DNA of 64,000 nt. Source: a virus. Under the pieces are notes generated by a model. The model searched no databases. It saw nothing but the letters and a program-made list of their open reading frames with translations, and was not told the DNA's origin. Shown here one piece after another: positions 21,245 to 46,803 of the stretch; positions within the stretch are counted from its first letter, which is position 1; the number at the start of each line of letters is the position of its first letter. The stretch is from the IMG/VR virus record IMGVR_UViG_3300008259_004660, positions 64,001 to 128,000 of that record; one strand, 5' to 3'. The position numbers were made by a program, and so were the translations under genes.

Positions 21245-21328
21245 CTTTTAATACATAGGCGCGTAACCTGACTGCCTATCAACGTGGAGCCAACCAAGCA
21301 CAACTCCACCAATCATTTTAAAAATCAA

Positions 21329-28854: not shown

Positions 28855-30882
28855 ATGCCTAGTATAGTAACCAGTAGTCTGCAATTATATCTTATAGCTT
28901 CAAATACTGGAAGCTATCCTACTTCTGGTTCTGTATGGACTGATTTAAGTCCTAATGGGTATAGTACAGATATTATTGGTGGCCCATCTTTTAATACTAC
29001 ACATTTTAGTTTTGATGGTAGCGTTGAATATGTTGATACCAATCAAAGTTTAAGTTCTGAAACATTCTCTGTTGGCGCGTGGTTTAGATCATCTGCGGGT
29101 GGTGTAAAGATGATATTGTCCAAAGAGACCACAGGTGGTTGGCCTTGGAATTATCGCATATGGTTGAATGGTGGAACGATTATTGGTGATATTGCTCTTT
29201 CTGGTGGTCAAAGTCAAACTATAAGCAGTACACTTACCAATTACAACAATGGGTCTTGGTATTATGTGATGTTTACCCGAGATGATTCCAATTTATATTT
29301 GTATGTAAATGGCGTCCAAATAAAGACACAAGCGGATACAATGGTGGGTAGCATAACAAATGCTCAAGAATTATGGATTGGTCGCAGCGCATTTACAGCC
29401 GGTGGTGTTAATCCAAATGGAAGTTATCAATATGTTGGTGATATTGCTGAAGTATTCATATATGATTCTATTTTGACATCGGGTGAAGTGTTGCAGAATT
29501 TTGACGCGACTAAACACACATATTATCCGCCAACTCCAACGCCCACACCAACTCCCACGGAAACGCCCACGCCATCACCCACAGCAACCGCCACGCCGCT
29601 TCCAACCGACACACCAACTCCAACACCAACGCCCACGCCATCACCCACAGCAACCGCCACGCCGCTTCCAACCGACACACCAACTCCAACACCAACGTTG
29701 ACAGAAACACCAACGCCCACGCCATCGGCAACTCCGACACCATTACCAACCGACACACCCACTCCCACTCCCACAAATACGGCAACTCCTACTCCTACAC
29801 CAACTCTTACCGCAACACCAACACCTACTCCTACGCCATACATACAACCAACTCCGGGGTGTCCACAAGTAACAAACAGTGGTAGCATATATTTCAATGG
29901 AACTTCATATGCTGAATTTCAATCCAGTAGTATATGGGCAGTAGGAAGAGGAGATTTTACCTTTGAGTGGTATATGAAAATCACAGGATCAGTTGCATCA
30001 CATCCTACTCAAAGTATATTTTACATGGGAGGACCGGGAGATACACTAGGACATCTTAGTGCAAGAATATATGATGGTGACACAATAAGATTTTCAATGA
30101 ATAATAGATATGTGGCAGAGGGGCATCCATTAAACATATATGATAAATGGACACATATGGCAATTTCTCATCGAAATGACAAATTGTATATTTTTCAAGA
30201 TGGTGTTCTGATTAGTGATTATACTTTGAATATAAATGCAAATGTTACCTCATCATTTCATCCGTTTAGTATTGGCGGCGCTTCAAATTTTGCATCAGTA
30301 TTGTATTATCAGGGATTGTTGACAAATTTTCATTACGTAAAAGGAGTTGGATTGTATGAAGGCGCTGGATACAGTATGGGTGACAAGGTTTTTCAAAAAC
30401 CAATGACGCCAATTCAGCCAGTAGAAGGAACAAAATTATTGTTGCTTGCTGATTATAGTTGCGTTCATCTATATAATTCTGCACCAGATACGCATATCAG
30501 TTCATCAAATCATGGCACGGCATATAACACAGCGCATCCTAATTTGAAAAAGTTCAACGTTCCAATCGGAGAATATTTCTTGGAGGGCGTGCCTAAAATG
30601 AATGATCAGAATTATTATTTGTTTGGGCTTGGAAAAGAAAAAGTGTATCCGCTTGAAGGTGGATTTGAATATGGTGAAAATATCGTGATGAACGCCACGG
30701 AAAAGAAATATAGTTTTGATTATTTTGAAATTCACTCTCCTATTACTGTTGTGAGTAGTGATATGTTCTATATTACAGCTTATGGATTTACCGCTTCGTA
30801 TGATCCAAGAACAGAAGTAAAAATGACTATAGATACTGATGTAAGTGGTAGCAACTCACCAATAATTGCCAGATATAGATAA
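28855..30882 (+). CDS. Probable virion protein: two LamG/ConA-like domains joined by a Pro-Thr linker
   Basis: [16 protein letters not shown]; [15 protein letters not shown]; about 100-aa (PT)n. Confidence 0.8.
29562..29697 (+). repeat. 66-bp tandem duplication in the PT linker
   Basis: Units at 29562 and 29628 are identical. Confidence 0.85.
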
Positions 30883-30892
30883 TTATGTATAT

Positions 30893-31069
30893 ATGAATCC
30901 AAATATCAAAGAAATCGGACATGTTATCAAACAGATGCAAGTTTTGGGAGGGTCATCAAAAGCTCCCACTTTTAATCAAGCGGCAGCAAATATTGTGAAG
31001 CAGGGAATTGATCAAAAACGAGAAGAGCAAAAGCAAAATGTTCCACAGAATCATAAACCCCTAAACTGA
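30893..31069 (+). CDS. hypothetical small protein
   Basis: ATG 30893, MNPNIKEIG. Confidence 0.5.
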   Translation: MNPNIKEIGHVIKQMQVLGGSSKAPTFNQAAANIVKQGIDQKREEQKQNVPQNHKPLN

Positions 31070-31112
31070 TTATATTGATGGGGCGTCGTATATTTATATA
31101 TGCGACATTTTT

Positions 31113-32174
31113 ATGGTAAGAACAATTCCACTCAACGGCAATCCAAATGGCCAAGTTTTTGGCACAATTGGTTCATTGATTGAAATGTCGGATGGATTGA
31201 AGTATGTAAAAGTGTCTGACGACTCATTGAATATTGGTTGGGAATCATATAACGCAACTCCGACGCCAACACCAACACCAACTGTTACACCAACACCAAC
31301 TGTTACACCAACACCAACTCCAACTGTTACTCCGGTTTCAACCGCAACACCAACACCAACTCCAACAGGTGCTCCAACATCAACACCAACACCAACTCCA
31401 ACAGTGGGTGGCGGATCAAGAGTTTTGTCATCACTGACTCCTATACAATACGGAAAAAGTTCATGGGATCTTGACGTAGATGGTCCTCTTTATGTTTACA
31501 ACCCAACTCTTATTTTTAGCTCAAGTTTTTGCTATGCAAATTTTGAAATAAATGCGGCATATGGAGGAAATGGTGGAGATGATGATTTCCAAGGAGGACA
31601 AGGAAGCTTTGGAAACAGAATGATATTTGGTGTGATAATGAGTAATTCGGTAGTTTATTCAATATCAAATGGACAAGCTGGTGAAAGTGGCACAACGGGT
31701 ACGGCTAACACCGGCGGAGGGGGTGGAACTACTGGAGCGACTGGTAAAAACGGAGGAGATGGTGGAGATGCTGGACCAGATGGATTTTCGGGTGGAGGTG
31801 GAGGAGGTGGTGGAGCGACTATACTTTTTGGGAATGGGTCTCCGATTGCAATTGTAGGTGGAGGTGGAGGTGGAGGTGGAGGTGGGCAGTATTCACAGGG
31901 ACAAGATGCAAATTGGGGCGTACCATCTTGGAATCCATCTGGGATGGGAGGAACATATTATACTGGAAGTGATGGTGCAGATGCTACCGGAGACGGGGGT
32001 GGTGGTGGAGGCGGTGGCGGATTTGCTGGATCGGGAGGAGCCGGTGGGGGCGACAATGATTTCGGGGGAGAAGCTGGAACAAATGGATATATGTGGACAG
32101 GATCAATAGCGGCACTTGTATCATGGCAAACACCAAGTAGTTCAAGTGGAAATGGGTTTGTTAAAATTTACTAA
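31113..32174 (+). CDS. Probable virion protein: anchor module, PT stalk, glycine-rich domain
   Basis: (PT)n then GGGGG-rich C-terminus ending GNGFVKIY. Confidence 0.75.
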   Translation: MVRTIPLNGNPNGQVFGTIGSLIEMSDGLKYVKVSDDSLNIGWESYNATPTPTPTPTVTPTPTVTPTPTPTVTPVSTATPTPTPTGAPTSTPTPTPTVGGGSRVLSSLTPIQYGKSSWDLDVDGPLYVYNPTLIFSSSFCYANFEINAAYGGNGGDDDFQGGQGSFGNRMIFGVIMSNSVVYSISNGQAGESGTTGTANTGGGGGTTGATGKNGGDGGDAGPDGFSGGGGGGGGATILFGNGSPIAIVGGGGGGGGGGQYSQGQDANWGVPSWNPSGMGGTYYTGSDGADATGDGGGGGGGGGFAGSGGAGGGDNDFGGEAGTNGYMWTGSIAALVSWQTPSSSSGNGFVKIY

Positions 32175-32177
32175 TAT

Positions 32178-33617
32178 ATGTCTAATACAATTGCATCACA
32201 TGGTTATCCAACAGGAAGTGTTTTTGGAAACATTGGAGAAATAATTGGAACAGACGTAGGTCAAGCGTATTATAAACAATTGTTTGATACACAAAATGTG
32301 GGATGGGTCAATCCAAGAACTCCAACGCCAACACCAAGTCCTACACCAACACCAACACCAGTTCCTGCTACTATAAGTAATTTTTTGTGTGAGACACTAC
32401 ACGCGACAGCATCTACAAAATGTAACAACGAATTTAAATTACAATGGTCAACAACAGACGTTTCTGATTTGGTATATTCAGTTGAATGGGGAAGAGCGGC
32501 AACAGCGGCAGACCCAGTTTATATTCTTGGATCATCAGCGACCACAATAACAAGTAGTACATTATTTTCTCCTACACCATTCTTATCGATTCCAAAAGGA
32601 AATTTTGAACTCGGATTCACCAGACCATCTGGTGTTCAGGATACCGCAAAAATATTTGTTTCAACAATTGGTTCAAGAAAAATAGATTCTGCCAGATTAT
32701 ATTCATACAACTCTGGGTCAAACACAGTATATATGGCTGTTGAGAATATATCTGGAAAATATATCTATCATATCAGAAACTCTGACGGAAAGGTTAGCGG
32801 AAGTACTGGAGGATTTATCAGCAGTATTATAAGTGGATCTTCAAGACAAGTAATGTCAGTTACAAATTCTGGTAGAGATACCACTGAATTATTTGAAATA
32901 ATTGAACCGATTGATACATTGTCTTTTGATCCAAGAGAAGTGAAGCCATGTTTTTCAATAGCACCCACGGCAACACCAACACCTACACCAACACCCGCTC
33001 CGACTACCACGCCAACGCCAACCACGACACCAACACCGACGCCGTCACTTACACCGACGCCTACGCCAACGGAAACTGGTGCGCCTACATTTACACCAAC
33101 CCCAACAGGTGCTCCAACTGCAACACCAACGCCAACACCGTCGTTGACCGCAACACCAACGCCAACAACAACGCCAACTCCTACACCAACGGCAGCACCT
33201 TCTCAATTTTTCACTCACTCATTTTGGTTAGACTTTGATAATCTAGGTAGAGCTTCAGCGTCATGGTTGGATGGAAATAATGTGGTGCAAACAAATGCAA
33301 TAACATCAGGTACTCCATTTACAACATGTATAAATGGATCATGCGCAAGACAAGACTCTATTTCAGTAATACATGGAACAAATTACAGAATAGCAAGTAC
33401 TTGTGGTGGGTTAGATCCTCGTTCTGCTTCATTTCAAATTGACGTTCTTACAAATTTGAACGGAGAATATAATTTTACATATAAAGATCCTTATGGAGTA
33501 ACCAGAATTGCATCTGGAGTGGCTTCACCGAGTACAAACACATATTCAGTTGCATGTGGATTCCAAATAGTTTCACAAACACTTGGTGTCGCATCATTGT
33601 CATCTCGTCGCTGCTAA
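32178..33617 (+). CDS. Probable virion protein with PT stalks
   Basis: N-terminus similar to 31113; two PT tracts. Confidence 0.7.
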
Positions 33618-33828
33618 TATTTAAAACAGAAAAATGTTCTGAAAAATCCCTTGATGTAAAACCACGGATTTTTTCTTTGTTGAAGACACCTTCCTATACA
33701 GCGCAGATGTATATAAGCATGCCTAGCTCTATCTGACACTGTAAATCTCATATCGTAATAAATAAATAGTTATTTTTTTATTAAAAAGACATTGACTTTA
33801 CATAAAATGGTGTCATTGTATTTCGCGT

Positions 33829-34020
33829 ATGAGTAATACAACAAACAACAATATTAAACGTGGTCGCGGTCGTCCTCGCAAGGAGTCCACAATTAAAGCC
33901 GCCAATAAAAATGAAAATATTGATACTGGTATTCCTGCGCTCTTGGAACCAAACAGTCACGACATTCACGACGAACTGGCTCGTATGGATAGTTACATTT
34001 ATTCTCAGTACAACGAATAA
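33829..34020 (+). CDS. AT-hook small protein
   Basis: KRGRGRPRK. Confidence 0.6.
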   Translation: MSNTTNNNIKRGRGRPRKESTIKAANKNENIDTGIPALLEPNSHDIHDELARMDSYIYSQYNE

Positions 34021-34028
34021 AAACAAGC

Positions 34029-34220
34029 ATGAATAATAACACTGCTGAAAAAACAGAAACCGCAATGTATGCCGTTTTCCGAAATGGCTTCCGCGTTAGC
34101 GACTCGGAGTATGACTCCAAGCTAGACGCCCAACGAGAGTTGGATTATTGGGGAGGAATTATCAAGCGCCATCCTGATGGTAGTAAGCTTGAGATTCGTC
34201 AACTTAACTATCGTCGATAA
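34029..34220 (+). CDS. hypothetical protein
   Basis: YAVFRNGFRVSDSEY. Confidence 0.6.
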   Translation: MNNNTAEKTETAMYAVFRNGFRVSDSEYDSKLDAQRELDYWGGIIKRHPDGSKLEIRQLNYRR

Positions 34221-34226
34221 AATATT

Positions 34227-34430
34227 ATGACAGGACTAAGACAAAAAATTCTACTAGCTACTTCCGAGGAAGAAGTAAAGAAGCTTGTAGCCGAAGGTAA
34301 AACATACGAATTTGCAAGTGTAAAGACTCGCAATTCGTGGGGAAATGCCGCTCGCAGAAAGTCTGCTGGTGAGAAGTATATTCCCACCAAGGCAGAAAAG
34401 CCCAAGAAGAAAGCTCGACGCAGTCGATAA
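34227..34430 (+). CDS. hypothetical basic protein
   Basis: 67-aa ORF followed by a terminator. Confidence 0.6.
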   Translation: MTGLRQKILLATSEEEVKKLVAEGKTYEFASVKTRNSWGNAARRKSAGEKYIPTKAEKPKKKARRSR

Positions 34431-34436
34431 AAATAT

Positions 34437-34459
34437 GGGGAGCGAAAGCTCCCCTTTTT
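34437..34459 (+). terminator. intrinsic terminator
   Basis: GGGGAGC-GAAA-GCTCCCC-TTTTT. Confidence 0.9.
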
Positions 34460-34463
34460 ATTC

Positions 34464-34922
34464 ATGAAAAAAATTTCCAAGAAAGAAAATGCGGCGATAC
34501 ATTGTGATTTACTTGAAGTGAATCCATTGTTTGGTGCAATGTGGCAAAGCTTTGAGCCGATGATATTTGAAGAAGAAGCGGAGAGTGTTGAATTGGAAAT
34601 ATGCAACAATAATTTCAGAATCGTTGCCAATGAAAACTTTTGGAAAAAGTGTAAGAATAAAAGAAAAATTTTTGTTATTTGTCACGAAATGTGTCATGTG
34701 ATTTTTGGACATTGGCTCATCAATTCAAATTTTGATAGAGAATGGGCAAATATAGCACAAGACATTGTGGTAAATGAATATCTTTCAAAATATTTTGATG
34801 AAAAGATAATTGGAAAAGATGTAGCCAACATTAAAACAGTATTTAAACATAAATCCGATATAGTAGAACGTAGGCTTGATTATGTATATTATTATGATCT
34901 TTTGATGCAATGTAGATCATAG
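34464..34922 (+). CDS. putative HExxH metallopeptidase (DUF2201 N-terminal-like)
   Basis: VICHEMCHV; NIAQDIVVNE. Confidence 0.65.
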   Translation: MKKISKKENAAIHCDLLEVNPLFGAMWQSFEPMIFEEEAESVELEICNNNFRIVANENFWKKCKNKRKIFVICHEMCHVIFGHWLINSNFDREWANIAQDIVVNEYLSKYFDEKIIGKDVANIKTVFKHKSDIVERRLDYVYYYDLLMQCRS

Positions 34923-34931
34923 TTATTTGAT

Positions 34932-35153
34932 ATGATGGTAGAGATCAAAGAGGACGAGCTTAAAACCAGAAAATTAAATGCTGGTGTGTTTATTTGCAAG
35001 TCGTGCAAAGACAACAAAGGAAAAATCGTTATGGTACAATATAAAACCAACGCGGAACCCGGAGTTTATTATCAATTTTGCGACGATTGTATGAAACTTA
35101 TGGGTACATGTGTACCATGTAAATCCAAATTGCCACCTAAGCCCCAACGCTGA
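34932..35153 (+). CDS. Cys-rich hypothetical protein
   Basis: CKSC, CDDC, CVPC. Confidence 0.6.
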   Translation: MMVEIKEDELKTRKLNAGVFICKSCKDNKGKIVMVQYKTNAEPGVYYQFCDDCMKLMGTCVPCKSKLPPKPQR

Positions 35154-35415
35154 TTGGACCCCATCTTGGTGGCTTATCTGGACACTGTGAATGTGGCATA
35201 TATAGTTTCATAGTACTGCATCCACACAACATGCATTTACCTATGTTGTTGTATCCTGTTTTATCCCAATTAGGACAAGCCAAGCATATATCTTTTCTTT
35301 GTTGAAATTGTTCGTCTGAAACTTTCTGGAATCCATCTTTTGTTGCCCAATTAACTGCGGCAGTTCCTAGACTTTTTGCTTTGTCTATCAAATTTGGTTC
35401 TTTGCTTATATCCAT
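35137..35415 (-). CDS. Cys-rich hypothetical protein (DUF6171-like)
   Basis: RKDICLACP, CMLCGC, KLYM..SQCP..W. Confidence 0.65.
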   Translation of the reverse strand: MDISKEPNLIDKAKSLGTAAVNWATKDGFQKVSDEQFQQRKDICLACPNWDKTGYNNIGKCMLCGCSTMKLYMPHSQCPDKPPRWGPISVGA

Positions 35416-35429
35416 AATACTTATATGTA

Positions 35430-35822
35430 GTGTTTGACCAAAATAAAAAATTAAACATACCTAAAAATTTTATCCTATTCGGACATAAGTATACTGTTGT
35501 TATAAAAAAAGATCTGTTTGAAACAGAAGGATGTTATGGAAATGCGGACGAAGATTTGAAATTAATCCAGCTACAGGGCGAAGGTGTGGTAAAAAGAAAA
35601 TACGAGGAAAATGGAAACACCTTTGAATCTGACATGACTATAACAAATGAAATGGTTATAGAAACATTCTTCCACGAGGTTATGCATATTGTGTTTGATG
35701 CAATGGGTGAAGAAGAACTGTCCGAGAATGAAAAGTTGGTGAATATATTAGGGAAAGCGTGGTTGGAGATATATTTATCTTCAGTATATGATCAAAAAGA
35801 CTCCGAAAAAAAAGAAGTCTAA
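35430..35822 (+). CDS. small HExxH protein
   Basis: ETFFHEVMH; GTG start. Confidence 0.65.
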   Translation: MFDQNKKLNIPKNFILFGHKYTVVIKKDLFETEGCYGNADEDLKLIQLQGEGVVKRKYEENGNTFESDMTITNEMVIETFFHEVMHIVFDAMGEEELSENEKLVNILGKAWLEIYLSSVYDQKDSEKKEV

Positions 35823-36159
35823 TTCAAAGGTCACAGTAAAACACGAAGTTGTTGAACTTCCTTCCAACAACAAGGAGATGGAAGATTATGTTCTCTCCAA
35901 TCGGTTAGAAATAAATGAAAAAATATTAGATAACATAGAGTTTGCATTAAAAAATAAACTCGGTGGCGTTGAAATGTTTTGTTTCAAAAATTCAAATTTT
36001 GTTGTGGTATTGAATCGTAGAGACTTCAAGGAAAGTCTGCAAAACATATACGAATTTAGTATGAGTAACGAAAAATTTGAGGTCTGTATAAGAGTTAAAA
36101 ATCTTATCGACCTTGCTGATAAGTTCGGGTTCATCTATAACTACAAAACCAAAAAATAA
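35788..36159 (+). CDS. hypothetical protein
   Basis: 123-aa ORF; EKFEVC motif. Confidence 0.65.
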   Translation: MIKKTPKKKKSNSKVTVKHEVVELPSNNKEMEDYVLSNRLEINEKILDNIEFALKNKLGGVEMFCFKNSNFVVVLNRRDFKESLQNIYEFSMSNEKFEVCIRVKNLIDLADKFGFIYNYKTKK

Positions 36160-36161
36160 AT

Positions 36162-36932: not shown

Positions 36933-37017
36933 TACATATAATAACTGCTTTTTTATAAAAGCCATCCAAATGGTATATATTTTTCTATTTGGGTGATATT
37001 TATAATGAAAAGATACT

Positions 37018-39525
37018 ATGTCCAATCAGAAAACAACCCAACTTCGTAGAGTCAGTGGCAGTCAACTTGTTTTTGGCGACTTGATTCCGTTGGTTGATAT
37101 TTCTGAAAATACATCTCCTACCGGAGAAACAAAAGCAATTTATGCTGGCGAGTTGGCCCAGTATATCATTTCTGGTGGACTTTTGAATGTTGCACTACCA
37201 AGACAGCCATACCAAACAACAAATGGTTTGGCTTTTAGTCAATCATCCAGCTACACTCCGGGATCAGGAACATCAAGTTATAATCTTCGTTGTTATGGAA
37301 ATTTTCCACAAGTGGGATCAAATTTCAGTTTGATGGTTCGCGGATTTATACCATCAACAATTTTGACAGAAGCAAATCCAAGAGTTTTGTTTGGTGTTGG
37401 AAATTCTCCTGACAATATAACATCGGGTGGACAGTCTGCATATATTGGCATTGAAGATTATGACTTGATTGGATATACAGACGATGGTGTTGCAACTAAG
37501 AAAATCATATTCAGCGATTTCATTGACAATTATTCTGACAGAGTATTTGAAGCTGTATTGACCAGAGATTCTTCAAGCTTGTTGAATTTGTATGTAAACA
37601 ATTCAAAGATTGGAGTTGGACTCAGTGGATCTGCCAGCACTATTACAAGTTCATATATCACATTAGGAAATGGTGACCAAACATTGCCAAACATTGAATG
37701 TACAATTTATGAGGCACATGTTTTTAATAAAGCACTTACTCAAGCTGAAGTAAATACATTGTTTTATGGTGGAGTAAGAAATTCTGATCCATATTTAGTA
37801 TCTTCATATACTCCAGTGAATTTGAATCCGGGTCCAACACAATGGTTGGATTCAAAAAGTTCAAATCACCTTCTACTTCCTACCAGCGGAGCAAAAGCAA
37901 CAAATCCAGATAAAGAATTCAGTTTAAGATTTGCAAATGATGGTACATCCAGTTTTCTTGGAAATGGAACCGAGCGAGCAATTCTTCCAGAAGGTTATGT
38001 TTTAACGGATGCGTTTGTATATTCTTCTGGCTCTCCACTTTTATCCATTGGGTCTACATCATCAGCCGCGCCGGTTGGAGCAAGTGGAATATATTCTTGG
38101 AACAACAACAGAGTTGCTTTGACAGAAGCAAAATACAGCAGAAATAATTTGCAACTTCTAGAATTGGGCGTCGCGCATAAAGACAGAAGTATATTCGTAT
38201 ATTACAGCGCAAGTGCGGCACCATGCACATTTAGTTTTGAAGGATATGTCGCAGAATATGGAGAGATTGTTTATTATCCACCAACACCTACACCAACGCC
38301 TACTCCAACTTTAACCGCAACACCAACGCCTACTCCAACTTTAACCGCAACACCAACGCCTACTCTAACTCTTACACCAACACCAACACCAACGGTTGGA
38401 CCTACACCAACACCAACACCAACGGGTGCGCCTACTTCAACGCCAACACCAACACCAACAACTGCTCCTACGGCAACTCCAACTCCGACACCAACATCAA
38501 CACCGCCCGGAGCACCAACTGCGACACCAACTCCAACTCCTACTCTGGGAATTCCATCAGTAGATGTTGCTCCTCAAGGAAGTGTTCCTGCTTACATAAA
38601 TATTCCATTTAATATAACAAGTACCGGAGCTTCAAATAATCTTAACAACATAACTTCTCACACAATATATGAGAGAAGTGGACCAACAGATCCTCCGACC
38701 GGAGGATGGGTGTCTTCTACGCTTACTAATCAGAGCCAAACTTCTTTACCATCAACAACATCAACCCGAGTTGATAGATACGACAACCCAGCACCAAGCA
38801 TAGCGGGTTATTATCAATTCAAAGCCGAGATTGTTGTCAACTCGGTTACATACACATCTATTTTATCGTCTGTATATTACATAGCAGCTGCACCAACGGC
38901 GACACCAACACCAACGGCAACTGTAGCAACGGCGACACCAACACCAACGCCGACCGCAACTGGAAACCCAACAAACACACCAACACCAACACCAACTGCT
39001 ACAATAGCACAAACAAACACACCAACACCAACACCAACTGCTACAATAGCACAAACAGACACGCCAACACCAACACCGACTGCTACAATAGCACAAACAG
39101 ACACGCCAACACCAACACCGACTGCTACAATAGCGCCGGACTGTGCATGCTATGATCTTGTCTGTAATTCAAACGGTGACTTTTCTGGAACCCACTACGA
39201 TTGCAGTACAGGAAATGCAGTAAGTGTAACTGATACAGGAAACGCGCCGGGACAAGTTATCCAATCGGTGTGTGCAAGATCTTCAAATCCAGCTGCACCT
39301 AATGCGTCGGTAGGATCTTATACACAAGTTTGGCCGGCATGCCCATGCCCGGGTGCAACAAGTACACCAACGCCAACGCCAACAATTGGAGCAACCAATA
39401 CCCCAACACCTACACCAACAGAAGCGCCGACGCCAACGCCGACCCCGACAACATACGGTGGGTTTGCACCTCCACCCGAAGGGGAGGACATAGGAGCAAA
39501 CTCACAAAACGTACCTTTCCCATAA
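37018..39525 (+). CDS. Large probable virion protein: LamG-like domain, long PT tracts, Cys-containing tip
   Basis: [19 protein letters not shown]; three (PT)n tracts. Confidence 0.75.
38975..39135 (+). repeat. 42-bp tandem units encoding [13 protein letters not shown](N/D)
   Basis: About four copies containing ACTGCTACAATAGC. Confidence 0.75.
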
Positions 39526-39532
39526 TATTTAA

Positions 39533-39751
39533 ATGAAAGAATATATAAACAGAAGTTTTAGTATAGTTACTGAAAATTTACTCAAGTGTAAAGCTGAGAA
39601 TTTCAAGGTGTTTTATGAGAACGAATTAAATCAATCATTCGAAATTGGTGGATATATGATAAATGGAGATTATACTTTTGTAAAAATGAAAGAAGCTGGA
39701 AACTTTTTCAGAATAAAAGACAACGAAAAGATATACATTCTTCGCAATTAA
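39533..39751 (+). CDS. hypothetical protein
   Basis: 72-aa ORF. Confidence 0.5.
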   Translation: MKEYINRSFSIVTENLLKCKAENFKVFYENELNQSFEIGGYMINGDYTFVKMKEAGNFFRIKDNEKIYILRN

Positions 39752-39897
39752 TTTTTCGTTGTTTATAATGGTTTTAAAAATAATAGTATAGACAAGCATT
39801 ACTAAAAATGTAGATATAATATCTACTATGCAAAATAATACGATTTAATTTATTATTGCTTGCATATATATGATAAAAGTCTATAATACAAAGTTAT

Positions 39898-41157
39898 ATG
39901 AAAAAAAATAATGATCTAATATTCGTGCAGATAGCATCATATCGTGATCCAGAATTGGTTCCTACCATCAAGGACATGATTGCCAAAGCGAAACATCCAG
40001 AAAAATTAACATTTGGTATTTGTTGGCAAAAAGATGAAACGGAAAATCTTGATGAATTCATCGACAATCCAAATTTCAGAATTGAAACATATCATTATTC
40101 AGAAAGCCAAGGACTGGGTTGGGCTAGAAACATAACAAACAAGTTGTATCGTGGGGAAAAATACACCTTGCAGATTGATAGTCACCATCGTTTTGTTCAA
40201 GATTGGGATGCAATGATTCTTGAAGATTATGATCAGGCTTTGTCGGTTGCAAAAAAACCAATCATAAGCACATATTGTACACCATTTGACACTGCGTTGC
40301 CGATTGAAAAAGCAAGCCCAGTACCATGCTTGATGTCACAATATGAATTTAGCAATGACAAACTTTTGATGAGCATGCCTCATTACATTGGAGATTATGA
40401 GAAGCGAACCAAAATTATTCGCGCTCGCACGTTGAGTGGACATTTCTTTTTTGTTGCTGGAAAATTTATTGAAGAAGTACCATATGATCCAGACATTTAT
40501 TTTGGTGGATACACTGAAGAAACAACTATGAGTGTTCGTGCATATACACATGGATATGATTTCTTCAGCCCATACAGAATGATTATGTGGCATGAATATA
40601 CTCGCAAATATCGTCCAAAGCATTGGGATGATCACGGCAAGGAAAGTGCCACAAAGAAGACAAGTGGTGAGAGAGATATTTATGCAAGAAAGAAAACTCG
40701 CCAATTGTTCGGACAAGAAGAACATGGAATTGATATGGGAATTTATGGATTAGGAAAGGTTCGCTCTTTGCATGATTATGAAGTATACGGAGGTTTTAAT
40801 TTCAAAGCATGTAAAATACAAGATTATACTCTATTGGTAAAAGAACCACCGAATCCACCTGATTGGGAGGCGCAATTCAAAAAAGAAAGACTCAAAATGA
40901 ATGTTGCATGGGATGTAGGACATTTCATGGAAGAAGACACTGGAGATTTTGAATTCATCACATTTGGCGTCGTTGACAAATATGACACAAATTTGTTCAG
41001 AGTTGATTTCAAACCATCAACTCATCCTGAAATATTCACATACAAGAAAAGTTCAATTGATGTAGAGATAATTTCAGATAACAAGCCAGACAGAGTAATA
41101 ATGTATTCTTTTAGCAAATCAAAACAGTGGGGTAAGCGTTACGAGAAAAAACTATGA
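39898..41157 (+). CDS. GT60-type polypeptide/Skp1 alpha-GlcNAc transferase (GlcNAc family)
   Basis: IFVQIASYRDPEL, LQIDSHHRF, GHFFF, YDP..YFGG..EE, RAYTHGYD. Confidence 0.8.
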   Translation: MKKNNDLIFVQIASYRDPELVPTIKDMIAKAKHPEKLTFGICWQKDETENLDEFIDNPNFRIETYHYSESQGLGWARNITNKLYRGEKYTLQIDSHHRFVQDWDAMILEDYDQALSVAKKPIISTYCTPFDTALPIEKASPVPCLMSQYEFSNDKLLMSMPHYIGDYEKRTKIIRARTLSGHFFFVAGKFIEEVPYDPDIYFGGYTEETTMSVRAYTHGYDFFSPYRMIMWHEYTRKYRPKHWDDHGKESATKKTSGERDIYARKKTRQLFGQEEHGIDMGIYGLGKVRSLHDYEVYGGFNFKACKIQDYTLLVKEPPNPPDWEAQFKKERLKMNVAWDVGHFMEEDTGDFEFITFGVVDKYDTNLFRVDFKPSTHPEIFTYKKSSIDVEIISDNKPDRVIMYSFSKSKQWGKRYEKKL

Positions 41158-42332
41158 GAATATTGTTCACTGTTTTAGGAAACAGTCGTCGTAGTAATTA
41201 TCTTGACGGAGAAACATTAAGATATGGAAACGGCGGTGGATCTGGGACTGATACCAGTTCAATAATAGTTGCTGAACAACTCGCCGCACAAGGCCACGAT
41301 GTGGTGTTTTGTTCAGACAAACTAGAACCACTGTTGGAAGAGTCTTATGCCAAAAAAGGAATTGTATTTAATGCAGGAAAGAAAGTTCGTGGTGTAATAT
41401 ACACGAACTTTCAGTTGGATAATGTTGAAAACAAAACATTTGATGTGTTGGTAAACAGTCTATGGTTCAGTAAGTACAAAGAGTTACCAGTCAAAATCAC
41501 AAAGGCTGTAATCTATTGGTGTCATATGCAATGGATTTATGGAATTGGCGAGATGATTGAGTATGTCAAGGAAAACAACCTAACCCTCGGATTTGTTCAT
41601 ATTTCAGAATGGGAAAAGAGCATGACAAATCCAGTTGTACAGGATGCTTGTAACAAATTGCCAAATACAAAGGTTGTTACGATACCAAATCCTATAATGG
41701 ATGACATGATTGAAGAAGTGTTGAGTGAGAAGATAGAAAAGAAAAGCGGGTCATTTATTTTTCATCCACTTTGGGCAAGAGGAGGAAATGTGGCAGTACA
41801 AGCGGTACGTGAACTTGATTTTCCAGAAAAAGAATTCAACGCATTTGATTATCTCATGTGCATTCATGGTCACACTGATCCATTCTTTAGAAATCATAAT
41901 GGTGTGGACAAGAAAACCTTGTTCAGATGTTTGGCAAAGAGTGACTATTTCATTTATCCACTGTATACTCCATACAAGGATGTTCACAAAGATACATTTT
42001 CGTGTGTTGTTGCAGAGGCAATTGCTATGGGCGTAACTGTAGTAACATACCCATTAGGTGCATTACATGATAACTTTGATGGATATTGCGCATGGTTAGA
42101 TTTTCCACCAGATACTGATCCTATAAAGATGCAAAAGGAACAATTGTCAAAGGACGAAGAAGGCAAGTTCAATTACACAAAGAACATAGTTGAAAAGGTC
42201 AAATATTTGGAAGCCAATACTGAATTTAAAAACAAAGTAAGAACCCAAGGCAAAGATTTCATATTTGAGAAATTTAATTCCAACAAAGTAGGACTGATGT
42301 GGCGCGATTTTATTTCACAGTTAACATCATAA
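41154..42332 (+). CDS. GT-B (GT4-like) glycosyltransferase, paralog A
   Basis: GGSGTDTS..AEQLAAQGHDV; DTFSCVVAEAIAMG. Confidence 0.75.
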   Translation: MRILFTVLGNSRRSNYLDGETLRYGNGGGSGTDTSSIIVAEQLAAQGHDVVFCSDKLEPLLEESYAKKGIVFNAGKKVRGVIYTNFQLDNVENKTFDVLVNSLWFSKYKELPVKITKAVIYWCHMQWIYGIGEMIEYVKENNLTLGFVHISEWEKSMTNPVVQDACNKLPNTKVVTIPNPIMDDMIEEVLSEKIEKKSGSFIFHPLWARGGNVAVQAVRELDFPEKEFNAFDYLMCIHGHTDPFFRNHNGVDKKTLFRCLAKSDYFIYPLYTPYKDVHKDTFSCVVAEAIAMGVTVVTYPLGALHDNFDGYCAWLDFPPDTDPIKMQKEQLSKDEEGKFNYTKNIVEKVKYLEANTEFKNKVRTQGKDFIFEKFNSNKVGLMWRDFISQLTS

Positions 42333-42336
42333 TATC

Positions 42337-43515
42337 ATGAGAATAGCAATCATAGTAATAGGAAACAGCAGACGAAACAATTATCTGAACGGTCATAATC
42401 TCAGATATGATGGTGGAGGGGCATCTGGCACAGACACTAGTTCAATGCTTGTTGCTGAATATTTGGCAAGCAAAGGACATGAGGTTGTAATGACTGTGGA
42501 TGAATTGGAGCCATTACTTGAAGAGAAACTACAAAAGCAGGGAAAGAAGTTTGTGCCCGGAGCAAAAAGTTATGGTGTTTCATACACAAATAAAAACTTC
42601 GACGGTATTGAGAATAAAACTTTTGATGTATTGATAAACATGCTTTGGTTTCAAGACTATGACAAGCTTCCTATTACAGTAACCAAGAGTTTGATTTATT
42701 GGTGTCATATGCAATGGGTATATGGGATAGATGCACATATGGCATATGCAAGAAAACACAATCTTACTCTCGGAATGGTTAATGTTTCGACTTGGCAAGC
42801 TAGTGTGTCACAGAATGTTATAAATCATGTCAAAGCCAATTACGAAAAAACAAAGCAATTCCTAATTTCAAATCCAATTTTTGATGAAATGATCAGAGAG
42901 GTTGAGCAGGAACCAATTCAAAAGAAGAAAGGTAAGTTTATATTTCACGCCACATGGCCAACGGGTGGAGATGTTGCAATGCAGGCAGTCAGAGAGTTGG
43001 ATATGCCAGAAAAACAGTTTCATGCATTTGATTATTTCATAACGGTGCATGGTCATACTGAGTCATATTTCCACAACCATCAAGCGGTGGATAGAAAAAC
43101 ACTTTACAAACACTTGGCTGAAAGTGAATATTTCATATATCCATTGTATACCATACACAAGGTTTTGAGAAAAGATACATTTGCATGCACTGTTGCAGAG
43201 GCTCTTGCTTTTAACACAATTGTATTAACATATCCACTTGGTGCATTGCCAACTGTGTTTGGTGACAAGTGTGTTTGGTTGGATGCCCCTCCGGGCACTA
43301 ACCTCGATGAGCTTCAACGTGCTGATTTGGCAAGAGACGAAGAAGGAAAGTTCAAATATACAAAAAATATCGTGGATAAGATAAACTATCTTGAAGCTAA
43401 CCCAGAGATAAAGGAAAAATATAGAACTGGTGGAAGACAATATGTGCTTGAAAATTTTAATATTAACAAGATTGGAAAAATGTGGGAGGATTGCTTGGAG
43501 GAATTGACAAAATGA
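42337..43515 (+). CDS. GT-B (GT4-like) glycosyltransferase, paralog B
   Basis: GASGTDTS..AEYLASKGHEV; DTFACTVAEALAF. Confidence 0.75.
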   Translation: MRIAIIVIGNSRRNNYLNGHNLRYDGGGASGTDTSSMLVAEYLASKGHEVVMTVDELEPLLEEKLQKQGKKFVPGAKSYGVSYTNKNFDGIENKTFDVLINMLWFQDYDKLPITVTKSLIYWCHMQWVYGIDAHMAYARKHNLTLGMVNVSTWQASVSQNVINHVKANYEKTKQFLISNPIFDEMIREVEQEPIQKKKGKFIFHATWPTGGDVAMQAVRELDMPEKQFHAFDYFITVHGHTESYFHNHQAVDRKTLYKHLAESEYFIYPLYTIHKVLRKDTFACTVAEALAFNTIVLTYPLGALPTVFGDKCVWLDAPPGTNLDELQRADLARDEEGKFKYTKNIVDKINYLEANPEIKEKYRTGGRQYVLENFNINKIGKMWEDCLEELTK

Positions 43516-44210
43516 AAATAGAAAATTTCTTTGAAAAAGGATACTATATAAATCTGGACAGAAGAACAGACAGAAACGAGCTTTTTCGTAAAGAAATGGA
43601 TAGAGTTGGGTTGCTATCTTTTTTTGAAAGAGTTTCCGCTGAAGATGGTATAAATGAACCAGATCCAATGAAGAGGCATGCGTACTGTGCATATACTTAT
43701 CACAAATTATTCAAGAAAATATACGATCTCGGATATGAAAGAGTGCTGATTTTTGAAGATGATGCATTTTTCTATGACAGACCAGAAATATCAGGAAGAG
43801 ATTTGGCGGAAAAAGCATTGGACGATCTAAAATATTTTCCAAATTGGGACATGGTTTTGTTTGGAGGAAGACCCGTGGATACAGTTGGACCTCTGCAAAT
43901 AATGACAGACAATCTTTTCAGATCACAAATGGTTCTAGGAACTCACGCCGTTGGATACAGAAGAAAAGTTATCAAGAAGGTACTTGATGAATATGTTCCA
44001 TTTCAAGATGGTACGATTGATGGTTGGTATGGTAATGTTCCTGTCATAGAAAAATATCTGGTAAACCCCCTCGCATGTGGAGCTATGCCCGTTAAAAGTG
44101 ATTTGGACGGCAATGGCTATATATCAAACGTTAAAGATGATATCATTTGCTATGATAGAGTGCCAAAAATAGACAAACGCCATGAAACACAAAGTAATAA
44201 GCCTGTATAA
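43512..44210 (+). CDS. GT25 family glycosyltransferase
   Basis: YYINLDRRTDR, VLIFEDDA, GTHAVG. Confidence 0.8.
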   Translation: MKIENFFEKGYYINLDRRTDRNELFRKEMDRVGLLSFFERVSAEDGINEPDPMKRHAYCAYTYHKLFKKIYDLGYERVLIFEDDAFFYDRPEISGRDLAEKALDDLKYFPNWDMVLFGGRPVDTVGPLQIMTDNLFRSQMVLGTHAVGYRRKVIKKVLDEYVPFQDGTIDGWYGNVPVIEKYLVNPLACGAMPVKSDLDGNGYISNVKDDIICYDRVPKIDKRHETQSNKPV

Positions 44211-44871
44211 ATCGGATATTGACTATACGATAGTTGAATTGCAAAAGAAAGTTTTTGATTATTTTTCAATTCCTCTTGAGCAAATTTCATTCGATGGCAT
44301 GCATTCTACTGCCATTGAAAAATATGTGAAAAATAACAATGATTGGGACAGTATAACCATATTTGATGTTGATTGCATTCCCATCACACATGATTGTGTA
44401 TCAAGAGCAATCAAGGAAATATCAGACAATAATACCATCTATGGGAATGGACAGGCTTCCAACTCAATATTTCCAACAACACCAAGAACTCCTCCTTTTA
44501 TAGCACCAAGTTTTCTAAGCTTCAGCAGAGATTTATGGGAAAGATCTCCATTCAAGAATTTTGATTTTCAAAGATATCCAAATCCAGAAGGAATTTCTAT
44601 GGAAGCTGATGTGGCGGAGGTATTCACCAGAGAAAATGAAAAAGCTGGAAGAAGAATAGCTATGAATTATCCAACCAGATGTTTAACTGGTATAGCATGG
44701 AATTATTTCGGCGGATATGGCTATAAGGAATTTGGTTTTGGAATTGCAACGGAGTTTGAAAGCGGAACATATCATAATTTTCAAATCAGATTGCCAGAGA
44801 AACAAAAATACTTCTTTGATTATTGCGACAAATTGATGCGCGGAGAAAAAATTGAAAGTTTTGTATCATGA
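44182..44871 (+). CDS. putative GT-A glycosyltransferase
   Basis: DxD motif FDVDCIP; position within the GT operon. Confidence 0.55.
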   Translation: MKHKVISLYKSDIDYTIVELQKKVFDYFSIPLEQISFDGMHSTAIEKYVKNNNDWDSITIFDVDCIPITHDCVSRAIKEISDNNTIYGNGQASNSIFPTTPRTPPFIAPSFLSFSRDLWERSPFKNFDFQRYPNPEGISMEADVAEVFTRENEKAGRRIAMNYPTRCLTGIAWNYFGGYGYKEFGFGIATEFESGTYHNFQIRLPEKQKYFFDYCDKLMRGEKIESFVS

Positions 44872-45692
44872 AGGAAATGACCAGCAATTATATCACTTGC
44901 AGACTGCAAGGCAGAACAGGAAACATAATGTTTCAGATAGCAAACGGCTACGCTCAGTCGTTAAAACATAATAGACAGTTTGTTGTTCCGTCAAAAGAAT
45001 CAACAACCAGTCATTTGGAAAAAGGATTGTTCAGAAAATTTGACTTTAGAATAAACACTATCCCGTCAAACAATATTGCACATCATATTTGGGCACCTTT
45101 TACATACAAAGAATTTGCTCCAGCAGAAGACAGACCCACGGCTTTCTGTGGATGGTATCAATCTGAAAAATACTTTGGAAACTATAAAGAAGTAATAAGA
45201 GATGCATTTAGTCCAACTACGGAATTTGTAATAAAAGCAACAAAAGAATTTCCGTTTTTAAATTCAGCCAGAGTTGCCGCCATAAATGTAAGAAGAGGAG
45301 ATTATCTCACCCAACCAAGACATCATCCAGTTGTGACATTGGATTATATAGAAGAAGCAAGAAAACTTCTGCCACAACATGATTATCTAATGGTTCTTAG
45401 TGATGATTTTGAATGGTGTAAGAACAACATCAAAGGAAATAACATCATATTTCCAAGCAACTATGTTGATCAGGATGCTATGTGGCTATTATCAATGTGT
45501 GATGATTTTATTATTTCAAACTCTACATTCAGTTGGTGGGGTGCATTCTTATCAAGAACAAAAAACAAGGTGGTTATATCTCCATCCACGTGGTTTGGAC
45601 CAGACATACATGAAGATCCTTCTGATGTTTGGTGTGAAGGTTGGATAAAAGTTCCAACAAAATGGAAAGACGGTTTTATTGTAATGGAATAA
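44868..45692 (+). CDS. GT11 alpha-1,2-fucosyltransferase
   Basis: GRTGNIMFQ, GWYQSEKYF, NVRRGDY, SNSTFSWWGA. Confidence 0.85.
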   Translation: MKEMTSNYITCRLQGRTGNIMFQIANGYAQSLKHNRQFVVPSKESTTSHLEKGLFRKFDFRINTIPSNNIAHHIWAPFTYKEFAPAEDRPTAFCGWYQSEKYFGNYKEVIRDAFSPTTEFVIKATKEFPFLNSARVAAINVRRGDYLTQPRHHPVVTLDYIEEARKLLPQHDYLMVLSDDFEWCKNNIKGNNIIFPSNYVDQDAMWLLSMCDDFIISNSTFSWWGAFLSRTKNKVVISPSTWFGPDIHEDPSDVWCEGWIKVPTKWKDGFIVME

Positions 45693-45693
45693 T

Positions 45694-46803
45694 ATGTACG
45701 ACTATCTAATAGTAGGAGCAGGATTTTTTGGAAGCATATGCGCTTATGAACTAAACAAGATTGGAAAGAAAGTCTTGGTGATTGATGTGCGCAATCATAT
45801 TGGTGGAAATTGCTATAGCGAAAATAGGGATAATATCAACCTACATGTTTATGGTCCACATATATTTCATACTTCAGACGAAGAGGTTTGGAAGTGGATC
45901 AATCAGTTTACATCGTTTAATAACTTCATATACACCCCCGTGGCTAATTATGATGGAGAGTTGTATTCTTTACCATTTAACATGTGGACGTTTTATCAGC
46001 TATGGGGAGTGCAAAGTGAAGAAGAAGTAAAAGCAATAATAGCCAAACAATCGGCCCATATTGGTGAGCCAAAAAATCTTGAAGAACAAGCAATCAAGTT
46101 GGTTGGTAGAGATGTGTATGAAACATTGATCAAAGGGTACACGGAAAAACAGTGGCGCAAAAAGGCGACAGAGTTGCCAAAAGAGATTATCAAGAGACTG
46201 CCAGTAAGATACACTTTTAACAACAACTATTTCAATGATAAGTATCAAGGTATTCCAATTGGTGGATACACTCAGATATTTGAAAAGCTTTTAAAAGGAA
46301 TAGATGTCAAAACTGGTGTTGATTATTTCAAGGACGAATTGCCGCCTCATGACAGAGTGATATACACAGGTCCGATTGATAAATTCTATGGATACAAATA
46401 TGGACATCTCGAATACAAGACTGTTTCGTTAGATCATATGAGAATGGAAACTCCAAATTATCAGGGAGTCGCCGCTATAAATTACACAAGTGAAAAAGTT
46501 CCATTCACTCGCACCATAGAACATAAACATTTCGAAAATTCACAGAGTGATGTGACTTGGGTAAGTTGGGAAACGCCAATCCAATATGTTCCAGAAAAAA
46601 CAGAGCCATATTATCCTGTAAATGATGCTGCCAATATGGAAATATTGAAAAAGTACAAGGAAGAATCATCAAAGCAAGACAAAGTGATATTCGGTGGTAG
46701 ACTTGGTGAATACAAATATTATGACATGCACCAAGTTATACGCAGTGCGTTGGATTGTGCAAATCATCTCAAATATTTGGAAGTTTGGCATCCAAAAGTG
46801 TGA
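45694..46803 (+). CDS. glf: UDP-galactopyranose mutase
   Basis: IVGAGFFG, HIGGNC, YGPHIFHT, EPYYP, GRLGEYKYYDM. Confidence 0.95.
   Translation: MYDYLIVGAGFFGSICAYELNKIGKKVLVIDVRNHIGGNCYSENRDNINLHVYGPHIFHTSDEEVWKWINQFTSFNNFIYTPVANYDGELYSLPFNMWTFYQLWGVQSEEEVKAIIAKQSAHIGEPKNLEEQAIKLVGRDVYETLIKGYTEKQWRKKATELPKEIIKRLPVRYTFNNNYFNDKYQGIPIGGYTQIFEKLLKGIDVKTGVDYFKDELPPHDRVIYTGPIDKFYGYKYGHLEYKTVSLDHMRMETPNYQGVAAINYTSEKVPFTRTIEHKHFENSQSDVTWVSWETPIQYVPEKTEPYYPVNDAANMEILKKYKEESSKQDKVIFGGRLGEYKYYDMHQVIRSALDCANHLKYLEVWHPKV

Follow-up and report, generated by a model that had tools for sequence, protein, structure and literature searches.

Which molecule does a phage decorate when it carries its own series of glycosyltransferase genes? 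The question is raised by seven consecutive genes at 39898-46803 of a 64,000-nucleotide stretch of viral DNA (the window), which represents bases 64001-128000 of the 184,824-bp IMG/VR virus record IMGVR_UViG_3300008259_004660, from an uncultured freshwater phage of ~185 kb (estimated completeness of the record, 78%). A first-pass annotation of the window had proposed mucin-type O-glycosylation, with an initiating transferase of family GT60 and a set of extending enzymes building fucosylated glycans that contain galactofuranose (Galf) on proline-threonine (Pro-Thr, PT) stalks of virion proteins, an overall interpretation that is partly supported by the analysis presented here. The explanation that we favour, and consider moderately probable, is that the cassette is a cytoplasmic, lipid-carrier-independent protein O-glycosylation system that acts on the phage's own PT-tract proteins. 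Genes are designated by their first nucleotide in the window, the cassette and PT-tract genes there being on the plus strand, or by genome position where so stated; loci and records used for comparison carry the prefixes L and G.

The GT60-type enzyme and its Pro-Thr neighbours

The first gene of the cassette, 39898 (39898-41157), encodes a GT60-type glycosyltransferase that is the candidate initiating polypeptide transferase. Its product matches PF11397 with 202.5 bits against a cut-off of 21 (E 1.7e-59), covering profile positions 2-350 of 352 in two stretches. The motifs DSH (D94-S95-H96) and WHEYTR (amino acids (aa) 231-236) are invariant among 12 relatives at 39-85% identity, with QxDSHHRF likewise unchanged, and the replacement of DxD by DxH is a hallmark common to GT27 and GT60 (PMC7185993). 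When an AlphaFold model of the protein (predicted local distance difference test score 74.5) was compared with the PDB by Foldseek, the top folds were GT27 polypeptide N-acetylgalactosamine (GalNAc) transferases, namely ppGalNAc-T2, T3, T1, T4, T7 and T10 (E 7.5e-9 to 2e-7, template-modelling score about 0.45), with GT2 teichoic-acid transferases next best; no solved GT60 structure was found in the PDB for direct comparison. An extra beta-rich domain at the C-terminus (aa about 330-419) is absent in many bacterial homologs. By profile, motifs and model, the enzyme is a GT60 family member with a predicted GT-A fold nearest to that of the GT27 polypeptide GalNAc-transferases.

Five open reading frames (ORFs) of the window, 28855, 31113, 32178, 37018 and 49443, contain long (Pro-Thr)n tracts, each where the first-pass annotation had placed it. 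Perfect (PT)4-coding runs number 15, all on the plus strand, and none arose in 100 dinucleotide-preserving shuffles. Five further PT proteins are encoded outside the window, at genome positions 4425, 42113, 43503, 44222 and 46561, the one at 42113 containing 325 PT residues.

The proximity of GT60 and PT genes is a recurrent arrangement in viruses. Among 26 IMG/VR loci with GT60 relatives at 37-85% identity, 17 have a PT-tract ORF no more than 1.5 kb from the GT60 gene, mostly as the next gene upstream and on the same strand, and a PT ORF was found at 0 of 80 control viral loci. Orthologs of 37018 stand upstream of GT60 in L003, L004 and L022, and elsewhere the PT neighbours are of other kinds. 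For instance, they are Gly-rich proteins in L006, L011 and L014, and proteins with other domains in L012 and L013, and in L016-L021 collagen-like fibres, whose C-terminus by eye resembles an S74-type fibre chaperone, are followed by a PT protein. In the case of L025 and L026, PT genes are found on both sides of GT60.

The association also holds at the level of whole records. Of 24 GT60 records, 14 contain a perfect (PT)5-coding run, as against 0 of 47 records (2.4 Mb in total) drawn at random by means of an arbitrary 14-mer (Fisher p 8e-9, to be read as an upper bound on significance). Conversely, PF11397 was found, among the matches listed, in 6 of 46 records picked solely for a (PT)5 run and in 0 of the 47 random ones (Fisher p 0.012, to be read likewise); for records of at least 60 kb, again among the matches listed, the counts are 5 of 9 and 0 of 9. 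Five further GT60 records came to light in this way, and four of them have a PT tract at most about 5 kb from the GT60 gene. The distance is 0.7 kb in G059 and about 1.2 kb in G033, where the tract is upstream and on the same strand; in G022, six PT/PS proteins are encoded about 27 kb or more from GT60.

Relatives of the enzyme occur in many bacterial phyla at 32-42% identity, and a metagenomic protein search returned >7,000 matches to PF11397-type proteins at E <= 1e-5. The remainder of the phage cassette does not accompany the bacterial genes. At 80 bacterial GT60 loci, a PT ORF is found within 8 kb in 24 and within 1.5 kb in 11, and PT tracts are scarce in the bacterial genomes examined (0-4 regions per 4.5-12.8 Mb). 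All 49 (PT)4 runs of one Saprospiraceae genome (L309, 12.8 Mb) fall in one 2.3-kb stretch directly upstream of GT60. This stretch adjoins a gene for an 1,847-aa protein with a crAss-muzzle-like N-terminus (contig C33:33500-37371), and the locus is possibly of phage origin, either as a prophage or as an element derived from a phage.

The PT proteins encoded near bacterial GT60 genes (VgrG spikes, PqqD/RRE-like and phage-muzzle-like proteins) are synthesised in the cytoplasm. Individual cases are a VgrG type VI spike, a 680-aa PT protein beside a giant crAss-muzzle-like protein, an fn3/PPC protein, PqqD/RRE-like proteins, and proteins of 1,220 aa that have a glycoside-hydrolase-like domain. In Burkholderiaceae, GT60 stands beside a VgrG-Rhs pair, including at loci below the PT threshold. 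In Paraburkholderia and Burkholderia loci L299, L308 and L329, GT60 is convergent to this spike/effector pair and several of the VgrGs have PT tracts, which raises the idea that spikes of the type VI secretion system may be glycosylated. In Gemmatimonadaceae (L338:7143-7937 and L346:7212-7952), PqqD/RRE-like proteins with a short PT tract are encoded directly upstream of GT60 and are reminiscent of the recognition elements (RREs) of ribosomally synthesised and post-translationally modified peptides (RiPPs). In a Verrucomicrobium locus (L272:9791-11690), GT60 is followed by a sulfotransferase and a GT25 gene, which hints at sulfated glycans there; the pairing of GT60 with GT25 thus recurs outside phages.

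In a tree of 108 GT60 sequences, the window enzyme belongs to a fully supported clade of 24, all from viral contigs but for one short contig of a metagenome-assembled genome. An adjacent PT ORF is found for 15 of these 24 members and in at least six other clades, so that GT60-PT adjacency is spread over at least 7 clades altogether. The pairing of GT60 with PT proteins is not due to chance. The functional tie that the first-pass annotation had drawn between a GT60 initiator and PT-tract proteins, and had itself proposed to check by co-occurrence, is borne out to the extent that co-occurrence and adjacency lie far above background in phages and bacteria alike.

The cassette enzymes and the candidate acceptors

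The seven cassette genes overlap or stand at most 4 nucleotides (nt) apart, and because of this they most likely form one operon, in keeping with the first-pass annotation, which had placed an operon downstream of 37018. A gap of 372 nt separates 37018 from the cassette, and a scan for sigma-70 promoters and terminators gave nothing above shuffles and so no operon evidence. No transmembrane segment or signal peptide was seen in any cassette enzyme.

Behind the GT60 gene, 41154 (41154-42332) and 42337 (42337-43515) encode two paralogous GT-B proteins of GT4-like type. The first has weak Pfam GT1/GT4 matches below the cut-off and the second has Pfam matches below the cut-off, and the Atlas look-alikes of both belong to GT4-type, mostly viral, clusters. 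A homolog of 41154 follows GT60 in nearly all viral-clade relatives. The next gene, 43482 (43482-44210), whose likely true start is the ATG at 43512, encodes a GT25-like glycosyltransferase with a borderline match to PF01755 (24.6 bits against a cut-off of 24); its sole matches in a PDB search were to procollagen galactosyltransferase 1, at a non-significant E of 0.09. GT25 is a family of beta-galactosyltransferases. The product of 44182 (44182-44871), a GT-A-like protein of 229 aa, carries a DVD motif and belongs to a family specific to phages, with homologs in L005, L006 and L018. It has no Pfam match, and resembles Atlas clusters named GT-A, with a template-modelling score of 0.82 to a cluster 26% of whose members carry GT2, which is a lead, not proof, for a GT-A enzyme. 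The cassette ends with 44868 (44868-45692), encoding a protein of the GT11 alpha-1,2-fucosyltransferase family (PF01531, E 5e-26, profile positions 30-296 of 298), and 45694 (45694-46803), encoding the UDP-galactopyranose mutase GLF, which makes UDP-Galf (PF03275, E 1.1e-70, plus NAD_binding_8).

PDB sequence searches returned nothing for the GT60 or GT-B proteins and no significant match for 44182 or the GT11 protein. Of the enzyme labels in the first-pass annotation, those of GT60, GT11 and GLF have Pfam matches at E 5e-26 or lower and that of GT25 is borderline, the two GT4-like proteins falling below the Pfam cut-offs and the GT-A protein having no Pfam match. The usual order in relatives is GT60, GT-B, (GT25), (GT11), GLF, with varying flanking genes, and GLF is found in 14 of the 26 related viral loci. 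Four further GT2-family matches lie outside the window, at genome positions 21272-21661, 29637-31077 and 146348-146755, and bring the phage to ~eleven glycosyltransferase-related genes.

The candidate acceptors are modular. The one directly upstream of the cassette, 37018 (37018-39525), is an 835-aa protein with an N-terminal part of ~415 aa that includes a weak LamG-like stretch, and three PT tracts at about aa 418-510, 624-708 and 783-823 (nt about 38269-38547, 38887-39141 and 39364-39486), the second and third being separated by a small Cys-containing module (39142-39363, aa about 709-782). Cys-containing modules of 55-75 aa, weakly similar to one another, lie between or after PT tracts in 37018 and in the upstream ORFs of L016-L021, that is, in two phage groups. 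The 675-aa product of 28855 (28855-30882) consists of a LamG domain, a PT stalk (aa 219-334, nt about 29509-29856), a second concanavalin-like domain and a C-terminal domain, and matches Laminin_G_3 in Pfam (E 1.6e-28) and PHROG 8510, 'virion structural protein' (E 6e-23); its LamG domain is 27-31% identical to structural proteins of S-PM2 and a Flavobacterium phage. The 353-aa product of 31113 (31113-32174), with an 80% identical ortholog in L003, has a 43-aa N-terminal module, a PT stalk (aa 45-99, nt about 31245-31409) and a Gly-rich C-terminal domain, and matches PHROG 29022, 'virion structural protein' (E 4e-7). In 32178 (32178-33617, 479 aa), for which no family was found in Pfam or PHROG, the same N-terminal module leads into a short PT tract (aa 43-68). 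A middle domain separates this tract from a long PT stalk (aa 260-344, nt about 32955-33209), behind which comes the C-terminal domain.

The 43-aa module is 44% identical between 31113 and 32178, and a different N-terminal module, of 95 aa, is common to the proteins at genome 42113, 43503 and 46561 (30-39% identity). Both modules end in 'GW' right at the start of the stalk, and the C-terminal domains are unlike one another. Four consecutive PT-tract proteins form a second cluster at genome 42113-47430 (L367:8113-13430), of which the one at 44222 combines a protease-like domain (GDSG motif) with a PT linker and seven repeats of ~45 aa. No signal peptide or transmembrane segment was seen by hydropathy in 28855, 31113, 32178 or 37018. 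The fifth PT protein of the window, 49443 (49443-50990, 515 aa), is a membrane protein in which a long coiled-coil region has transmembrane segments at either end; its PT tract lies at the C-terminus (aa 431-478, nt about 50733-50876), beyond several such segments. Its orthologs in L003 and L004 are 65-71% identical, and it is counted only tentatively with the glycosylation system.

The first-pass annotation had called 28855, 31113, 32178 and 37018 putative virion proteins with stalks tipped by LamG domains. The PHROG matches of 28855 and 31113 and the likeness of the 28855 LamG domain to phage structural proteins agree with the first part of this description, at the level of domains only, and a tblastn search of cultured phages with the N-terminal part of 37018 gave no match. 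As for the second part, LamG domains flank the stalk in 28855, and the weak LamG stretch of 37018 is N-terminal to the stalk, so that the word 'tipped' fits only in part.

The phage itself is widespread and persistent, since 37018-46803 is found in lake and freshwater metagenomes of many studies from 2019-2025, with 87-97% of sampled words present, and its cassette is nearly invariant in the lake metagenomes of four independent studies, whose contigs show 0-4 differences per 1.8-3.9 kb. The contigs break at every PT tract. Some contigs have a 6-base deletion, equal to one PT unit, at 38394 within 37018, and in one run a cluster of substitutions forms a variable stretch at 38664-38823 of the same gene. 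Over 31208-31809, the PT-coding part of 31113, summed contig depth in runs X6, X8, X9 and X14 is 20-50 times that of neighbouring bins, and therefore many other contigs in lake metagenomes carry similar PT-coding repeats.

The window also encodes six tRNAs, PhoH, Hsp20, DnaK, peptide deformylase and a baseplate-wedge homolog, and a megablast search of the region against cultured phages found no DNA-level similarity. The phage DnaK (47465-49324) is 65-66% identical to those of Prosthecobacter and Verrucomicrobium (838-858 bits) and at most 64% identical (at most 784 bits) to 151 Bacteroidota DnaK proteins; together with a DUF1800/DUF1501 pair at 2-2324, this is a weak hint of a Verrucomicrobiota/PVC host. 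A 'moraphage' identity with a Flavobacteriales host (PMC12619734) was set aside, the DnaK scores of the two Verrucomicrobia being higher than those of the 151 Bacteroidota.

A proposed pathway and its alternatives

According to the favoured explanation, the soluble GT60 enzyme would recognise the (Pro-Thr)n tracts of 37018, and probably also those of 28855, 31113, 32178 and the PT proteins at genome 42-47 kb, and would move a first N-acetylhexosamine onto Thr, which by family precedent would be alpha-linked N-acetylglucosamine (GlcNAc) from UDP-GlcNAc (PMC9472816). The two GT4-like enzymes and the GT25, GT-A-like and GT11 enzymes would then lengthen the sugar stepwise, one residue each. By family precedent, GT25 would add beta-galactose (Gal) and GT11 alpha1,2-fucose (Fuc), and the GT4-like and GT-A-like enzymes may add further residues, including Galf from UDP-Galf supplied by GLF. 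A plausible core would be Fuc-alpha1,2-Gal-beta-GlcNAc-alpha-O-Thr, which parallels the protist Skp1 core with different elongating families; we infer Fuc and Galf solely from GT11 and GLF. The outcome would be stiff, protease-resistant, hydrophilic, glycan-coated stalks on modular proteins, probably virion appendages; the acceptor, the location in the virion, and the identity and order of the sugars are alike what we infer. The patchy occurrence of GT25, GT11 and GLF among relatives suggests that the glycans may differ between strains.

The genes that other pathways would call for were sought in the 185-kb record. No match was found for a priming phosphoglycosyl transferase (PF02397; WecA-type, Wzx and PglL families were not searched for), for a ThyA-like hydroxymethylase (PF00303) or for oxygenases of prolyl 4-hydroxylase (P4H) type (PF13640, PF03171). 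Direct stepwise protein glycosylation in the cytoplasm is therefore favoured by the solubility of the enzymes together with the absence of these three kinds of gene. Synthesis on undecaprenyl phosphate was set aside on the grounds of the missing PF02397 and transmembrane enzymes, and hydroxyproline (Hyp) as acceptor on the grounds of the missing P4H, which makes Thr the more likely acceptor of the two. No GDP-mannose dehydratase was found in the record either, which implies that GDP-Fuc would come from the host. An apparent GDP-mannose 4,6-dehydratase, recognised by eye from its translation, is encoded just upstream of GT60 in L015 (735-1754), and if this holds, some relatives may make their own GDP-fucose precursor.

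It is unlikely, though worth weighing seriously, that the cassette instead glycosylates phage or host proteins away from the PT tracts, with PT serving as a flexible linker and another domain (the Cys module, a Gly-rich or a collagen-like domain) being recognised. The upstream neighbours do share such features, namely the Cys module in 37018 and L016-L021, Gly-rich sequence in L006, L011 and L014, and collagen-like fibres in L016-L020. An off-PT protein target would also suit GT25, a weak match here, as this family includes collagen hydroxylysine galactosyltransferases, and complete phage genomes with PT linkers and no GT60 would suit PT as a plain linker. However, the PT tract is the sole feature common to all of the adjacent proteins (VgrG, PqqD-like, fn3/PPC, glycoside-hydrolase-like and LamG) in phages and bacteria, and extended peptides rich in Thr and Pro are known acceptors of both GT60 and GT27 enzymes (PMC7185993, PMC9472816).

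Somewhat less likely again is the remodelling of host envelope glycans, that is, of lipopolysaccharide or lipooligosaccharide (LPS/LOS), capsule or S-layer, for example in superinfection block or release, with PT adjacency as a by-product of accessory-gene clustering. GT25, GT11 and GLF are classic enzymes of LPS/LOS and O-antigen synthesis (Pfam descriptions), the make-up of the cassette varies among relatives as O-antigen loci do, and four more GT2 genes lie elsewhere in the genome. These features are countered by the absence of a priming phosphoglycosyl transferase from the record and of transmembrane segments from the cassette enzymes, by an initiator whose fold is that of a polypeptide transferase, and by GT60-PT adjacency that recurs in unrelated settings in bacteria, where the other cassette genes are missing.

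It is improbable that the product of the cassette has nothing to do with the large PT proteins and is a small glycoconjugate, free or peptide-linked, such as an oligosaccharide or a glycosylated peptide of RiPP type. GT60 does follow a PqqD/RRE-like protein, a hallmark of RiPP pathways, in Gemmatimonadaceae, yet neither a precursor peptide nor an RRE gene was noticed in the vicinity of the phage cassette, and the PqqD-like proteins themselves have PT tracts, which fits a role as substrates. Glycosylation of phage DNA against restriction, as known from phages such as T4 whose hydroxymethyl pyrimidines are glycosylated, was set aside as very improbable, since the record has no ThyA-like hydroxymethylase, GT60, GT11 and GLF are not known DNA-modifying families, and the link to PT proteins would be left unexplained, even though phage glycosyltransferase clusters can build multi-sugar DNA modifications (cited in PMC12619734; PMC13326640).

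Protein glycosylation on the PT tracts has its own difficulties, and the following observations weigh against it. No PT ORF is found within the examined flank at 67 of the 108 GT60 loci, and G019, a GT60 phage record (63% complete), is essentially without PT tracts. Complete prophage records with PT tracts carry no GT60, and PT linkers therefore do not need GT60. The compared loci are related, so that the Fisher p-values overstate independence. LPS/LOS synthesis is where GT25, GT11 and GLF are typically met with, and a transferase need not be membrane-anchored to act on membrane-bound lipid intermediates; the absences noted above are provisional, the record being incomplete. The PT proteins are putative virion components, the name 'virion protein' drawing on domain-level similarity, and none of nine PT-tract proteins scanned against PHROGs matched a capsid or tail-tube family. 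One PT protein, 49443, is membrane-bound, and the second PT cluster, which has helicase/HNH genes on one side and a gene for a metallo-beta-lactamase-fold hydrolase on the other, is outside the structural modules. In addition, the role assigned to PF11397 proteins in phages and prokaryotes is a prediction from sequence. Set against these points is the fact that GT60 tends to accompany PT proteins and that PT proteins do not need GT60, an asymmetry that fits an enzyme-substrate relation. The spread of the pairing over clades and contexts is a stronger argument than the p-values, because related loci are not independent.

More tentatively, and as a possibility that we hold to be somewhat doubtful, PF11397/GT60 may represent a widespread cytoplasmic mucin-type O-glycosylation of prokaryotes and phages that reads (Pro-Thr)n tracts and coats extracellular nanomachines assembled in the cytoplasm, such as phage fibres and appendages or type VI VgrG spikes. 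In that case the glycan of the present lineage would be strain-variable, H-antigen-like and Galf-bearing, and the protist GT60 pathways (Skp1, Trypanosoma cruzi mucins) would be offshoots.

If PT stalks are indeed glycosylated by a GT60-led cassette, phages and bacteria would have a mucin-type O-glycosylation of their own that follows a simple sequence code, and thousands of unannotated metagenomic genes would gain a function. The PT 'linkers' that are so common in phage proteins and in secreted proteins of bacteria might have to be regarded as sites of glycosylation. The stability and antigenicity of virions, their recognition of hosts and their adhesion to surfaces or mucus could all be influenced by a glycan coat, and new questions would arise from the link to type VI spikes. 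A literature search for GT60 or PF11397 with phages or bacteria returned CAZy tallies only, with no functional link, and no paper was found that connects the family to phages or to PT tracts, the known parts being phage virion glycosylation and GT60 polypeptide glycosylation. To our knowledge, glycosylation of phage-particle proteins is documented for only a few mycobacteriophages, and GT60 enzymes are characterised only in protists.

Comparison with known systems

The serine-rich repeat protein (SRRP) adhesins are O-glycosylated stepwise in the cytoplasm, on Ser-rich repeats, by GtfA/GtfB and accessory transferases, with GlcNAc as the first sugar. The enzyme genes adjoin that of the substrate, and strains differ in which elongating transferases they have. 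The likeness to what is proposed for the phage lies in cytoplasmic stepwise glycosylation of a low-complexity repeat of hydroxy amino acids by enzymes encoded next to the substrate gene. The two systems differ in that the SRRP initiator is a GT-B (GT4) pair acting on Ser-rich repeats of proteins that leave by accessory Sec export, whereas the phage has a GT-A enzyme of GT60, Pro-Thr repeats and no signal peptide seen.

Among phages, the closest precedents concern virion proteins. In mycobacteriophages, phage glycosyltransferases modify the phage's own proteins in the host cytoplasm (Freeman et al. 2023, as cited in PMC12619734), so that this background to the first-pass annotation holds. There the glycans are on the C-termini of capsid and tail-tube subunits (PMC12619734), whereas here the candidate acceptors are the PT stalks of accessory modular proteins and the initiator would be a GT60 enzyme. 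The same 2025 paper, which deals with large freshwater phages, describes four core glycosyltransferase groups and raises virion glycosylation only as one possibility (PMC12619734).

GT60 enzymes are also carried by four cultured jumbo phages, XacN1, Xoo-sp13, CM1 and RAS14. In the case of the Xanthomonas phage XacN1, ORF334 is a GT60 homolog (35% identity over 99% of the query) that adjoins a carbamoyltransferase gene, with a GT9 gene nearby, and ORF325, which follows the baseplate wedge genes, encodes a 3,313-aa protein with PT tracts near its C-terminus. The XacN1 cassette thus has a carbamoyltransferase and GT9, and no GT-B, GT25, GT11 or GLF, unlike that of the window phage, and its GT60 enzyme groups with Burkholderiaceae-type sequences, outside the viral clade of the window enzyme. 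The paper on XacN1 names neither the glycoproteins, nor the glycosyltransferase family, nor any PT link; it does report that the virions contain at least two Schiff-positive glycoproteins and suggests the phage glycosyltransferases as their makers (PMC5852040).

The most extensive comparison is with the characterised GT60 enzymes of protists, for which the background given by the first-pass annotation also stands: Gnt1 acts on a Hyp of Skp1, and T. cruzi mucins carry GlcNAc-alpha-O-Thr extended with Galf (PMC6939170, PMC9472816). The phage enzyme shares with Gnt1 of Dictyostelium and Toxoplasma and with T. cruzi TcOGNT1/2 the Pfam family, the DxH motif and a GT-A fold, in its case modelled, nearest to GT27. 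Gnt1 is soluble, as the phage enzyme is by sequence, and cytoplasmic action would be expected of the latter. The Skp1 core, Fuc-alpha1,2-Gal-beta1,3-GlcNAc-alpha (PMC6939170), and the Galf of T. cruzi are echoed by the GT11, GT25 and GLF genes of the cassette (PMC6939170, PMC9472816, PMC7185993). The Skp1 pathway (PhyA, Gnt1, PgtA, AgtA) includes a prolyl 4-hydroxylase, whereas the phage record has no PF13640 or PF03171 match. Elongation on Skp1 is by the bifunctional GT2-GT74 enzyme PgtA and the GT77 enzyme AgtA, whereas the phage cassette offers GT25, GT11 and GT4-like enzymes, of which GT25 and GT11 may be analogous in function (beta-Gal, then alpha1,2-Fuc). Finally, the acceptor in Skp1 is one Hyp, and the putative acceptors of the phage are long (PT)n stalks in many proteins.

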